DNA of 64,000 bases, taken from the NCBI GenBank assembly GCA_031556235.1, contig JAVBTH010000001.1, positions 519,009 to 583,008 on the forward strand, in the 5' to 3' direction. Shown one piece after another: positions 47,701 through 50,963 of this stretch (the first letter of the stretch is position 1; every line of letters begins with the position of its first letter). This DNA is from Bacilli bacterium. Lineage in GTDB: Bacteria; Bacillota_I; Bacilli_A; RFN20; CAG-826. The position numbers were made by a program, and so were the translations under genes. The notes under the pieces are model-generated. The model made no database searches and was not told the origin of the DNA. It saw nothing but the letters and a program-made list of their open reading frames with translations.

Positions 47701-50700
47701 TAGGTGAAGTTGTGAGCACATTCAACTATTATTTGGAAAACGATCGTGAAAACGTTGAAGATATTGCCTTTAATGCAGTGAAACGCAATATAGGAAACAA
47801 GACTATTGAAGTTAAACAAACGAAAGTAGATATAATTGAACCGATTACTTTTGAAAACGGCATTAATGATTGGATAAGTTCCGCGGGAACAGTCGCAAAT
47901 ATTGCTAGCAATCAGCATTTCACAGGTAGCAAATCTTTAGAGATTGTAGGTGGAATTAACAAAAAGGCTAGCGTTAGTAAGAATATCACTTTAAATAAAT
48001 TTCCGATAAATAAAGCTTTTTCAGTCTCAGTATGGGCTAAAGCTGATGCGATGATTATGAACGACATATGCATTATTAACGAACCAGCAAAATCAGATGA
48101 AGGCAATGTTACTAAGTTTACTTTGCGAGTTGAGACAAAATTTAAAAAACGCTCACAGATTTTTGTAAGTGAGGCTGGTTTTGATGCACTTACAAGTGAT
48201 TGGCAATTACTTTCTGTGCCGGTGTCATTAAGATTTGCAAGCGAATTAAGCGATATAGTTAGTGTAAAAATTGTTCTTAAATATGAATACAACAACGGCA
48301 ATGTTTATTTTGATGACTTACATGTGGGCGAATGTTCGTATTCTCTTATTGAAGTTAATGATGAAGGTGTTGTGGTTTATCAAGAGAGTGAAAATGAAAG
48401 AACATATTATCTAAACTTAGTGGATAAAAAGCCAACGATTTCTTTGACTTTTGATAATGATGGCGAGAAGTATCATAACTACTTTAGTTATGGTGAAAAC
48501 GGTCAATTAGTTAAAGAAGAAAATCATTTAGGAATTATCAAAGAATATTTGTTTGATGAAAAAAATAAGAAAAGAGTCATTAAAACTTATCATAAAGATG
48601 AACCAGCTAATTCAATTTATGAAGAAAATATTTTTGATGAAAATGGTCGCAAAATAAAAGAAAGCACCAGTCGTGGTGGCTATCGTAATTATGGATTGTA
48701 TAATAATTATGAATATCATCAAAATTCTGATTTAGTTAGAAGTTATCAAGATGGTAGAGGTAATAAAACATATTATGGATATGATGAGGATAATCGTCTA
48801 ATAAATATTACTAGTTCGGTTAATGATGAAGAATGTTCGACATCAATCAAGTACGCTGGAGAATATATATGTAGAATGAGGACAGGAGATAATGAATATA
48901 CATATTCATATGATACTCGAGGACGTTTGTTAAACTTTAATATCAATAATCAAGAATATTTAAATAGCTCTTTTGAAGAAATTGACTTTGAAGATGTAAC
49001 AGTTACAACATACGGAACAGCGGAACAGTTTGTTAGCAAAGTAAGTAAGGATAAAAAATCAAATGTAATTATTTATAATGGTGAAATGTTACAGGAAATA
49101 AGTAAACTTGATCATGATACATACGAGATTAAGGACTATTTAAATAAAGCAATATATTTAATAGATGAAGAATCGGTTGACTGTAGAACACTTGATGCAA
49201 GTGAATTGATATATAGAAAAACGGTAAATCCACACATTCATAGTGTAAATTATGAAATTAACAATTGTGGAACAATAAAAGAATATACCTACATTACTCA
49301 TTATGATAATTTATTAGATCAAAAAATTAAAGAGTATAGTATTAATGAATCAACTAAGCAACTTTTTGACTATGATTTGCTCAATCGCGTTAAAAAGATA
49401 TGTATTTCTGAAAATGATAATAATTTGCTCGAATATAATTATAAATATTTAAAAGCTGGAGACTATGCAAGTAATATTATAAACAAAGTTACCAGATTTG
49501 TTTCAGAGGAATTAGAAAAAGAAACAAATTATAAATATGATGAAATAGGCAATATTATTGAAATATTGCAAAATGGTGAGACCACACATCGTTACAAATA
49601 TGATAGTGTTAGTCGTTTAGTTAGAGAAGATAATAAAGTTTTGAATTTAACTAATTTGTTTAGCTATGACTGTAATGGAAATATTTTGAGTAAAACATGT
49701 TATGGGTTTGCAAATGGAAAGTTAATAGATAAATTTTCAGGTAATAAACATGTATACACTTACGATAAGGACAATCAAGACCGTTTAATTGACTTTAATG
49801 GTGAAAAATGTACATATGACAAAATTGGAAATCCAAAGATTTACCGCGACAAAACTCTAACTTGGAGTCACTTACGTGATTTAATTAATTATGGACCCGT
49901 AACTTTTACGTATGGTGCAAATCATATGAGAACAAGTAAAAACTTATACGGCAACATTAGTAAGTATGTTTATGATGGAAATAATTTAATATTTGAAACG
50001 AGAAGTGATGGAACGACTATCGCCTATTTCTATGGCGCAGAGGGAATATTGGGATTTGAATACTGCGGGGAAAAGTATTTCTATGGAAAAAGTTTGCAAG
50101 GTGATGTTGATTGCATATATAATAAAGATGGAAAAATTATAGTAAAATATGAGTACGATGGGTGGGGGAATGTTAGAACTATTAATGGAAATGAAAAAAA
50201 TATAGGCGATATAAATGCGATAAGATATAGAGGATACTATTTTGATGTTGAAACTAATCTATATTACTTAAAATCTAGGTATTATGATCCAGAAACTGGA
50301 CGCTTTATTAATGCAGATGATATAAGCTACCTTGATCCGGAAACTATTAATGGTTTAAATTTATATGCTTACTGCAGAAATAACCCTATTAGATTTAAAG
50401 ATGAAATGGGCCGTTTTCCAAATAGTGATAGTGATGCCTATGAATTATTGGCAGCGGCTCTCGAGTTTAGCATAGGATTTGTATATGCGTTTAAAGCGTT
50501 TGGAATTAATCAAGATCTAAAAACAGCTACTTGGCCTCCTTACATTACAAAATACACTAATGAATTAACGGCGTTAAATAATACTTTGAAAATTGTCCAA
50601 AAAGCAGCAACTGTGTTAGCTGTAATTGGAATTGCTATTTCTACGATAGAAAACATAAATTCGGACATAAAAAAAGGTTACTCAACTGGAAGAATAGTAT

Positions 50701-50963
50701 CAAATGCCATCGTTAATACTGTAGTCAATTCCATAAGTACATTTGGCTTTGCAGCTTTAGGCTCAAAAATTGGTGGAGTAATAGGATCGTTTATTCCAAT
50801 TCCAGGTGTCGGTACCGCGATTGGAATGGTGATAGGGGCAGTGATTGGGTATGGTGTGGGTTTAGTATTTAACGCTGTGATGAATTTGAAAATAGGCGGC
50901 AAAAGTATTATGGATCATATTAGAGATGGATTTTATAACTTTTGGAAAAGTATATTTAGATAA
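44706..50963 (+). CDS. Giant Rhs/YD-repeat polymorphic toxin (2085 aa): unknown N-terminal region, acidic stretch, CBM4/9-like beta-sandwich, YD repeats, Rhs repeat-associated core, variable C-terminal glycine-zipper toxin domain
   Basis: Many YD repeats (e.g. YKYDEIGNIIEI, YKYDSVSRLVRE, FSYDCNGNIL, YTYDKDNQDRL, YVYDGNNLIFETRSDG). The Rhs core reads RYRGYYFDVETNLYYLKSRYYDPETGRFINADD...NGLNLYAYCRNNPIRFKD. The CBM-like domain is at about 47844-48332 (FENGINDW...HFTGSKSLEI...FSVSVWAK...WQLLSV...VYFDDLHV). The N-terminus has no signal peptide. Confidence 0.85.
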   Translation: MSTKRTVSIIPSLTGVTDSNNRLTLGKNIGIGITIPATNLNINENEKISSAVLMLRIEGFYTTMTGSSNFTAYLIDKNNKKIALKAFKLSSIQSAMTIPLLFDVGGFLKETLLGEDILLALKIDVPLLGTHYLNISKQGELVVSLESVEEDQADEGETGDNESGEETAYELDIDRKDSAVSDEINKIISLTARGAEYSEANDPIPNGGFTVGFNGYGHGDVDYVVAVNQVLKDLKDFAIENVKMVLKIDDHKRQQIDENLPLVAMVHGSDILDVFTVNNDAEMEFDVTKIFLSPIDNILVKIKSFSTLSKLNYILVSEDSATFRIKVKEKHNTDRTSITKTLKNRDELRIDLCDGNQVHEHVLLTKEESQLPFDITQIGSKHGIKLNIEQKLETDVKFGNLESDGKISRVIEANGESRIFVEKYFYYMGDKRIFVSKNDVIKVSEEKYEIKLEDKIHEVFKASIDENGNALVSSKEEDIDVGLFLKKFGDKVSEVKMYCYINDTRKEITIDDNIANVSSIYYFEHSGVFPLSDVAIRKDSLGTYFVCDGERFVVGIKDHKFEVIDKSNKIYFQIPTKYSIDNHDNAQIAEYELIEIFSEKDNISKHLPEIFKNEDLLMKIEELEQTNDYIKQIKNQLDEIEINKNDARQKTYKEIFNIKNILQDIYNEWNSFNRDEEWNKVKNIYFPDECEYLSKEDCYKYLNDALNDLVISTDFVLNEYNMSRIVESKDCLLRPLSTGLNYNLPREVFLPKLNACINSFNSKLAYENEQIQNDTIEKQKTRISKELEKYQNIKKKLFDDIRVLWRKYSSGPVSFILNQDENYYGYDSKGSFITMGNKKEETLRIIYDDKLSEFGVISTIYFKNEKFVTFSYENNQLNRVKAETGKFVELEMLANQIKYNHNNKYDVDITWNGETLRVSNNEHYLEASNLFYDPPIIKGESCHKFLKVGGLITSYNSQKIDGGEDIYLEEYDIHFISDTVTKVENLQNKLVQQYIFNHLGEVVSTFNYYLENDRENVEDIAFNAVKRNIGNKTIEVKQTKVDIIEPITFENGINDWISSAGTVANIASNQHFTGSKSLEIVGGINKKASVSKNITLNKFPINKAFSVSVWAKADAMIMNDICIINEPAKSDEGNVTKFTLRVETKFKKRSQIFVSEAGFDALTSDWQLLSVPVSLRFASELSDIVSVKIVLKYEYNNGNVYFDDLHVGECSYSLIEVNDEGVVVYQESENERTYYLNLVDKKPTISLTFDNDGEKYHNYFSYGENGQLVKEENHLGIIKEYLFDEKNKKRVIKTYHKDEPANSIYEENIFDENGRKIKESTSRGGYRNYGLYNNYEYHQNSDLVRSYQDGRGNKTYYGYDEDNRLINITSSVNDEECSTSIKYAGEYICRMRTGDNEYTYSYDTRGRLLNFNINNQEYLNSSFEEIDFEDVTVTTYGTAEQFVSKVSKDKKSNVIIYNGEMLQEISKLDHDTYEIKDYLNKAIYLIDEESVDCRTLDASELIYRKTVNPHIHSVNYEINNCGTIKEYTYITHYDNLLDQKIKEYSINESTKQLFDYDLLNRVKKICISENDNNLLEYNYKYLKAGDYASNIINKVTRFVSEELEKETNYKYDEIGNIIEILQNGETTHRYKYDSVSRLVREDNKVLNLTNLFSYDCNGNILSKTCYGFANGKLIDKFSGNKHVYTYDKDNQDRLIDFNGEKCTYDKIGNPKIYRDKTLTWSHLRDLINYGPVTFTYGANHMRTSKNLYGNISKYVYDGNNLIFETRSDGTTIAYFYGAEGILGFEYCGEKYFYGKSLQGDVDCIYNKDGKIIVKYEYDGWGNVRTINGNEKNIGDINAIRYRGYYFDVETNLYYLKSRYYDPETGRFINADDISYLDPETINGLNLYAYCRNNPIRFKDEMGRFPNSDSDAYELLAAALEFSIGFVYAFKAFGINQDLKTATWPPYITKYTNELTALNNTLKIVQKAATVLAVIGIAISTIENINSDIKKGYSTGRIVSNAIVNTVVNSISTFGFAALGSKIGGVIGSFIPIPGVGTAIGMVIGAVIGYGVGLVFNAVMNLKIGGKSIMDHIRDGFYNFWKSIFR

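Follow-up and report, generated by a model that had tools for sequence, protein, structure and literature searches.

A glycine-zipper C-terminal domain and its two-helix membrane partner at an Rhs locus of a Bacilli bacterium: a probable membrane-depolarising toxin-immunity cassette

To our knowledge, the only Rhs-borne pore-forming toxin with an experimental example so far is Tse5, which belongs to a type VI secretion system (T6SS) from a Gram-negative bacterium, and we know of glycine-zipper depolarising toxins in Firmicutes on LXG carriers only. Here we describe a locus in which the two settings are joined, namely an Rhs polymorphic-toxin gene with a glycine-rich C-terminal domain (CT) in a stretch of 64,000 nucleotides (nt) from a Bacilli bacterium (GenBank assembly GCA_031556235.1, contig JAVBTH010000001.1, positions 519,009 to 583,008), hereafter the window. 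Modules homologous to this putative toxin domain are carried both by Rhs cocoons and by effectors of type VIIb secretion systems (T7SSb) in gut Clostridia. By analogy with described toxins, the CT and the small protein encoded directly downstream, which has two transmembrane (TM) helices, probably make up a pore-forming or membrane-depolarising Rhs toxin cassette with membrane immunity.

The closest described systems fall into three groups. The CT of Tse5 is an Rhs-borne pore former whose immunity protein, Tsi5, has two predicted TM segments; the boundary between its core and CT is L1168|I1169, directly after the leucine of the second motif of a DPXGL-(18)-DPXGL aspartyl protease with catalytic residues D1141 and D1164 (PMC9637101). 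Encapsulation of Tse5 by the Rhs shell has been noted to stand in for a cytoplasmic immunity protein (PMC12744356). In the LXG toxin TelE, glycines 466, 470 and 474 are key to toxicity (PMC10434224), and the glycine-zipper C-terminus of EsxX depolarises membranes (PMC12744356). Both are countered by soluble DUF5085 proteins in the cytoplasm (TipE and ExiAB, respectively), and EsxX is neutralised extracellularly by DUF5079/DUF5080 proteins with six TM segments (PMC12744356). The toxins of contact-dependent inhibition (CDI) group 1 also have a putative glycine zipper (PMC11630599).

The C-terminal domain and the autoprotease motif before it

A preliminary description of this DNA, made from the letters alone, had proposed that the end of the Rhs protein is a GxxxG glycine zipper of the pore-forming or membrane-depolarising effector type, with no catalytic signature of a nuclease or deaminase. 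The glycine tract that it quoted at about 50758-50882, GSKIGGVIGSFIPIPGVGTAIGMVIGAVIGYGVGLVFNAV, was recovered as amino acids (aa) 2019-2058, exactly nt 50760-50879. The CT holds seven GxxxG motifs, compared with 2.0 +/- 1.3 in 10,000 composition-preserving shuffles (14/10,000 reach seven), and this excess, together with the conservation of the glycines across the family, bears out the zipper. All sequences of a 41-member alignment have P2033, G2036 and G2048, and conservation is 90% or higher at G2023, G2044 and G2052. More widely, 110 of 116 family members have P-x(1,2)-G with two or more additional glycines behind it at i+4 spacing, and in 100 of the 116 there are three or more.

The AlphaFold2 model of the CT, generated from the same 41-sequence alignment, is all-helical (mean predicted local distance difference test score (pLDDT) 82.4; predicted template-modelling score 0.64). 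Its five helices, H1 to H5, are listed in Table 1. Five of the H4 glycines stand in i+4 register by our register count, and the invariant proline in IPIPG forms the hinge between H3 and H4. From the model, the H3-IPIPG-H4 hairpin is predicted to be a membrane-inserting, oligomerising element, and the amphipathic, aromatic H5 is probably an interfacial helix. An I-N/G-G-K-S motif is conserved just before H5. On the opposite strand, a 74-aa open reading frame (ORF) at 50678-50902 lies over the glycine-codon tract; this ORF is a mirror artefact of the GGN-rich coding strand and no gene.

No enzymatic family or fold was found for the CT in Pfam, NCBIfam, PHROGs or a PDB sequence profile search, and NCBIfam gave no match to it of any kind, which agrees with the reading of the preliminary description that this is neither a nuclease nor a deaminase. 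The profile search, in which the 41 CT sequences were compared with every chain sequence in the PDB at E<=10, returned no significant match; colicin E1 appeared at E=0.42 and was dismissed as not significant. The CT matched the ten-helix colicin channel domain neither in sequence nor in fold, and it has none of the motifs of Tox-WTIP, the sole pore-forming domain in a survey of polymorphic toxins (Zhang et al. 2012, PMC3482391). Matches to tape-measure proteins and lysins of phages lie in TM segments, are of low complexity and were dismissed as compositional.

The CT follows directly on the Rhs core. The NCBIfam model TIGR03696 (Rhs_assc_core) matches aa 1817-1902 (72.4 bits, cut-off 32.5, E=3e-20), and YD_repeat_2x matches the same protein at 26.8 bits against a cut-off of 15.8 (E=5e-6). 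Pfam RHS_repeat was matched below threshold only, and the shell is therefore divergent; the carrier is nonetheless a true Rhs protein. The Rhs chains in the PDB (8h8a, 7q97, Tse5 8cp6, TccC and Tse15) align with the shell's final ~360 residues, with E-values down to 4e-17, and the alignments to these solved proteins stop exactly at ...NNPIRFKDEMG. The Tse5 match of the full-length query is to the core chain 8cp6_B only.

The string at the end of the core, NNPIRFKDEMGRFP, occupies aa 1892-1905 (nt 50379-50420), and the motif to which it belongs reads D1877-PETINGLNLYAYCRNNPIRFK-D1899-EMG-R1903, the stretch after PETINGL up to D1899 being 14 residues long. By sequence, this motif would be the counterpart of the DPXGL-(18)-DPXGL protease: the two aspartates are 22 residues apart, as against 23 in Tse5. 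Across the 15 Rhs-linked proteins of the CT family, the second motif always keeps its aspartate and glycine, the proline is kept in nine and is otherwise S, D, K, G or E, and the residue after the glycine is H, N, R, C, S, T, Y or M, with leucine in none (0/15). The window protein likewise keeps both aspartates and G1902 and has substitutions at the second-motif proline and leucine. DEMGR therefore looks like an ordinary variant within a clade of sister Rhs proteins, with its putative catalytic residues intact, and cleavage is predicted, by analogy with Tse5, after R1903.

The preliminary description had seen KDEMGR in place of DPxGL as aberrant, a view without support, since both aspartates and G1902 are kept and the variation is that of the 15 sisters. 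Its further suggestion that release of the CT may differ from that of classical Rhs proteins finds no support, D1877 and D1899 being present at close to the Tse5 spacing. It had also begun the CT at 50410, which is one base off frame (that frame is rich in stops, and the codon of G1902 is 50409-50411), and had given its length as 185 aa; the assignment to the C-terminal tail is confirmed, while the length is really 183 aa, counted from R1903 at nt 50412. As for the effector type it had proposed, every in-silico test that we ran agrees with it (the helical model, the lack of an enzyme, the modularity and the two-TM immunity protein), and only the altered autoproteolysis attached to that proposal lacks support.

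A recurrent module and its linked membrane protein

When 1.84 billion cluster representatives were searched exhaustively with HMMER, 194 proteins with this CT came up at E<=1e-3, 23 of them also passing E<=1e-10, the window protein included. It was this search that revealed the family, word-indexed searches having given four and six proteins. The relatives come from uncultured Clostridia and Clostridiales, human-gut metagenomes and Vallitalea. A scan of GTDB genomes gave two loci, the window's own genome lying outside the GTDB representatives, and no match to the CT was found in phage and plasmid records (tblastn) or in a scan of viral contigs.

Among 88 members subjected to a Pfam scan, the partner domains were RHS_repeat (11), LXG (5), WXG100 (4), the PAAR-like DUF4280 (1) and T7SS_signal (1). 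Many of the carriers are Rhs proteins, or fragments of them, that end in NNPxxxxD-x-x-G, and short orphan cassettes (e.g., P0006 and P0013) begin at the DPxG motif. Two LXG/WXG-type members sit in T7SSb loci beside EssC, WXG100 pairs, DUF4176 and YukC. To judge from these sequences, the module is swapped among Rhs, LXG/WXG100, PAAR-like and orphan contexts in the manner of a polymorphic toxin, such modularity being a hallmark of domains in polymorphic toxins (Zhang et al. 2012, PMC3482391).

The position and the mobility of the module both bear on a different reading, in which the C-terminal hairpin is a structural anchor or plug that ties the Rhs protein to the envelope of the producer and is no toxin. 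The two to four hydrophobic helices at the extreme C-terminus would suit such a role, and the Rhs protein has no recognisable export signal, so that its association with the membrane is conceivable. However, the domain is placed past the aspartyl autoprotease motif, where all characterised Rhs proteins have the toxin that is released, and the same module rides on LXG/WXG100 T7SS effectors and on orphan cassettes that are paired with immunity genes in arrays, as expected of a toxin and unlike an anchor. We regard the anchor as very unlikely.

The gene downstream of the Rhs gene starts after a gap of 9 nt from the toxin stop codon (50961-50963) and is preceded by the ribosome-binding site (RBS) GAGGA; this RBS and the intrinsic terminator behind the gene (Table 1) would, by sequence, frame a two-gene toxin-immunity unit. 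In a single-sequence AlphaFold2 model of its product, the two TM helices have pLDDT values of 80-88 and the remainder is low. The ORFs downstream of the CT relatives encode proteins of the same architecture that can be aligned with it. A profile of five such ORFs, from which the window ORF was excluded, matches the window gene at E=5e-10 and no other among the 269 ORFs of the window. Using a six-sequence profile, we found a member of this family 0-30 nt after the CT stop in 18/18 related loci from genomes and metagenomes, ~14 of these loci being non-redundant and one a decayed cassette. The CT and the downstream ORF therefore present themselves as a toxin-immunity pair, and the preliminary description, which had pointed to this ORF as the partner, is borne out by the linkage of a conserved two-TM family to the CT in all 18 loci.

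A word-indexed search with the immunity protein returned only itself. Pfam assigns the immunity family to no model; weak matches, in some members only, were to DUF5381 (best E=1.2e-5) and EbsA-like (3.9e-4). DUF5085, DUF5079 and DUF5080 had no match in the window protein or in its 12 relatives. Going by these searches, both families, toxin and immunity, fall short of all cut-offs in Pfam and NCBIfam. The window protein also lacks the S-I-N-x-K-K-Y-C motif that is otherwise conserved in the immunity family.

Several findings weigh against a pore-forming toxin. The motif before H5 is kept in close relatives as INGKSIxDHIRDG, and this conservation is unaccounted for by a pore. With 20-30% identity, the window immunity protein diverges more than any other member of its family. 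Tse5 is absent from the matches of the CT profile in the PDB at E<=10, the presence of a Tse5-CT fragment among the deposited chains being unconfirmed, and TelE, EsxX and TspA were compared with the CT by their published descriptions, not by sequence. Two Pfam models of glycine-zipper regions were matched below threshold: Gly-zipper_Omp (PF13488) at 15-19 bits against a cut-off of 25, and DUF6861 (PF21724) at 22.3 bits with the full Rhs protein (E=1e-4) and 21.0 bits with the CT alone (E=2.6e-4) against a gathering threshold of 28. DUF6861 is described as a membrane module or translocation device, not as a toxin.

The last of these findings leads to a reading in which the glycine-zipper domain is a translocation or entry module, like DUF6861 or the N-terminal zipper of Tde1, and not itself toxic. 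DUF6861 is matched by 3/88 family members, with a best E-value of 8.7e-10; by its description it is an N-terminal membrane domain of the Gly-zipper type that occurs in fusions with Ntox15, TNT, EndoU and CdiA tRNase toxins. The description cites as precedent Tde1 (PMC10240207), in which an N-terminal glycine zipper is reported to precede an enzymatic toxin domain. A minority of the best-scoring members do have a further 45-79 residues behind the module, and one has 185. In the others, however, the match ends ~0-40 residues from the C-terminus, and in the window protein nothing follows the module and no cargo domain is present. The whole 183-aa CT is predicted to be helical, which would leave no room for an enzyme, and the immunity protein is a membrane protein strictly linked to the module, as expected were the module itself toxic. 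A translocation module is thus in our estimate improbable, and a toxin acting at the membrane remains the preferred reading.

Other loci of the family showed a variety of arrangements. One of them (L006) is a multi-cassette array of orphan Rhs-CT cassettes (61-4981): the cassette at 3212-4519 belongs to the CT family of the window protein and is followed by its immunity gene (4529-4981), that at 61-576 has a different Gly-rich membrane CT with its own two-TM ORF at 554-1066, and that at 1289-2605 has a CT with an HExxH-like HERGH motif together with a 147-aa ORF. The T7SSb-linked members (L007 7595-8368 and L010 2193-2987) have other neighbours. In L010, as in L011, the gene directly downstream of the CT encodes a soluble protein of 264 aa, and in L007 a two-TM protein of 257 aa is encoded two genes downstream, past the DUF4176 gene; none of these has a Pfam match. 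The neighbours in L007 and L010 are reminiscent of the two compartment-specific immunity classes of EsxX. A decayed cassette (L024 2501-3061) has only CT residues 142-183 left, and its immunity gene is broken into two frames.

A 2090-aa homologue with the same CT and immunity gene (P0008, in locus L004 1-18273) is flanked by an ImmA/IrrE-helix-turn-helix-sigma-like block and by phage baseplate- and tail-fibre-like genes (Gp10_C and Gp53-like_C), which suggests that it lies at the edge of a prophage. Since the CT family is absent from the phage and plasmid records and the viral contigs, these surroundings are probably incidental.

The Rhs gene and its surroundings in the window

The first ~1100 aa of the Rhs protein (window 44706-48005) had no match in Pfam, NCBIfam, PHROGs or the PDB sequences, and its N-terminus has no Sec-type hydrophobic region or signal peptide, no LXG and no PAAR domain. 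No secretion genes (T7SS, T6SS or other) turned up in a scan of 27 ORFs that took in all genes adjoining the locus and every one of the largest ORFs of the 64-kb window. Those of the scanned ORFs that matched a family are all housekeeping genes (mfd, spoIIE, tilS, ftsH, lysS, clpC, dnaB, dnaX, recR, tmk, holB, prfA, prmC and secA), and gdpP is also among the housekeeping genes of the window. The host is a low-GC Firmicute, and the GC content of the window is 34%. Together with two upstream ORFs, the toxin-immunity unit is placed between dnaX-recR-tmk-holB and prfA-prmC-tsaC-rpiB.

These two ORFs immediately precede the Rhs gene and share its orientation. The first (43286-43717) encodes 143 aa with about three hydrophobic segments and is of holin-like size; the second (43730-44443) encodes a soluble protein of 237 aa. 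Neither has a family match, nor a counterpart beside the related Rhs gene of L004. Between them and the Rhs gene (region 44503-44705) we noted an extended -10-like element, TGTTATAAT, at ~44511-44519, followed by a structured leader of 184 nt (minimum free energy -42.7 kcal/mol, z=-3.4). The leader holds a terminator-like hairpin (44647-44672) and a T-run immediately before the RBS and ATG of the Rhs gene, and this hairpin could be an attenuator. Rfam gave no match for the leader, and no ribosomal or other RNA was found in the whole window.

Table 1. Features of the Rhs toxin-immunity locus (window coordinates; residue numbers are those of the encoded protein)
Feature	Residues	Coordinates	Strand	Basis or properties
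Rhs polymorphic-toxin gene	2085 aa	44706..50963	+	ORF list/translation, TIGR03696, YD_repeat_2x, PDB Rhs matches
Rhs-associated core, closes cocoon, ends at G1902	1817-1902	50154..50411	+	NCBIfam TIGR03696
Putative aspartyl autoprotease motif, D1877-PETINGL...NNPIRFK-D1899-EMG-R1903	1877-1903	50334..50414	+	Regex/alignment of 15 Rhs-linked members; HMMER alignment to 8h8a, 7q97
C-terminal domain (CT), putative toxin, five helices	1903-2085	50412..50960	+	AlphaFold2, family search, sub-threshold Pfam
CT helix H1	1908-1940			AlphaFold2
CT helix H2	1944-1990			AlphaFold2
CT helix H3	1994-2028			35 residues, 2 charged, 6 Gly
CT helix H4	2035-2059			25 residues, 0 charged, 6 Gly, mean Kyte-Doolittle hydropathy 1.86
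Hydrophobic glycine-zipper hairpin H3-IPIPG-H4 (predicted)		50685..50882	+	AlphaFold2, composition, conservation
CT helix H5, IMDHIRDGFYNFWKSIF	2068-2084	50907..50957	+	Strongly amphipathic, aromatic; hydrophobic moment 1.82
Putative cognate immunity gene	144 aa	50973..51407	+	Two TM helices (aa 8-35 and 39-69), then small beta-rich domain
Intrinsic terminator		51446..51485	+	15-bp stem, 4-nt loop, U-run; RNA fold of 51405-51500 -20.2 kcal/mol, z=-3.45

Mode of action and comparison with known toxins

By analogy with the described systems, the CT most likely adds a new toxin, as yet without a name, to the known membrane-depolarising class of interbacterial toxins. It would be made inside the Rhs cocoon and cut off, from aa ~1903/1904 to 2085, by the aspartyl dyad D1877/D1899. 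Once it has reached a neighbouring cell, the CT would insert its uncharged H3-H4 hairpin into the cytoplasmic membrane, as for Tse5-CT, TelE, EsxX and TspA, with the amphipathic, aromatic H5 at the membrane interface. Glycine-zipper packing would then build an oligomer that acts as an ion-conducting pore and collapses the membrane potential. The producer and its kin would be shielded by the co-transcribed two-TM protein, which is linked to the CT at every related locus and presumably binds the hairpin inside the membrane. In the cytoplasm of the producer, encapsulation by the Rhs shell may, going by Tse5, make a soluble antitoxin needless.

The CT might also be toxic at the membrane without forming a discrete ion pore, either by gross destabilisation or by hijacking or blocking an integral membrane protein. 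TelE causes damage that lets propidium iodide through and EsxX depolarises only (PMC10434224, PMC12744356), CDI ionophores need specific membrane-protein receptors (PMC11630599), and the conserved polar motifs RI(V/I)SNA and INGKSIxDHIRDG could be protein-binding surfaces. The in-silico evidence is common to this mode of action and to the pore and does not separate them; we consider toxicity of this kind unlikely and keep the ion-conducting pore as the preferred model. A broader and more tentative proposal, possible though in our view rather doubtful, is that the CT and the two-TM protein constitute an ionophore toxin-immunity family of gut Clostridia that is independent of both Tse5-CT and TelE/EsxX, is swapped between Rhs and T7SSb LXG carriers, and is delivered here on an Rhs protein by a route that is neither Sec, T7SS nor T6SS.

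The concept of how glycine-zipper toxins work is left unchanged by this locus. What it offers is a definable toxin-immunity family, below all Pfam and NCBIfam cut-offs, that is now open to annotation, a natural test case for Rhs encapsulation replacing a cytoplasmic antitoxin, and a compact pair (183 + 144 aa) in which the intramembrane blocking of glycine-zipper toxins can be studied.

The two-helix glycine-zipper region is shared with Gly-zipper_Omp and with DUF6861, of which positions 32-110 of 194 align to CT residues 101-180. In contrast to DUF6861, which is described as an N-terminal module before enzymatic toxins, the module is C-terminal here.

Compared with Tse5 (RhsP1, PA2684) and Tsi5 of the Pseudomonas aeruginosa H1-T6SS, the window locus has the same overall plan: an Rhs cocoon, an aspartyl autoprotease motif (putative in the window protein) of the DPXGL type, a non-enzymatic hydrophobic CT of ~150-180 aa, which in Tse5 depolarises target membranes, and, directly downstream, a gene for a small immunity protein with two predicted TM segments. 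It differs from Tse5 in that no sequence relationship was detected for the CT (PDB profile, E<=10), in its second motif (DEMGR, not DPxGL), in its N-terminal 1100 aa without a family match, and in belonging to a low-GC Firmicute, with no PAAR domain, VgrG or T6SS in the ORFs scanned.

TelE (Streptococcus gallolyticus, CBI13054.1) and EsxX (Staphylococcus aureus ST398) are LXG T7SSb toxins of Firmicute hosts with an extended, helical glycine zipper at the C-terminus, and homologues of the window CT ride on LXG/WXG100 proteins within T7SSb loci. The spacing of the glycines, +4, +4, +4, +2, is the same in TelE (G466/470/474/478/480) and in the CT (G2036/2040/2044/2048/2050), which we take as a lead only, as it comes from reported positions. 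In contrast to both toxins, the carrier in the window is an Rhs and not an LXG protein, and the partner has two TM segments and a beta-rich tail, with no match to DUF5085, DUF5079 or DUF5080. TspA and TsaI, a membrane-depolarising T7SSb toxin of S. aureus and its membrane immunity protein, differ from the window pair in the shorter zipper and the LXG-like carrier of TspA.

The ionophore CdiA-CT toxins of CDI systems and the pore-forming colicins are helical, non-enzymatic, depolarising polymorphic toxins with integral-membrane immunity, as is proposed for the window CT. Finally, a membrane protein strictly linked to a non-enzymatic hydrophobic CT is what the window pair has in common with Tse5/Tsi5, TspA/TsaI and the CDI ionophores.

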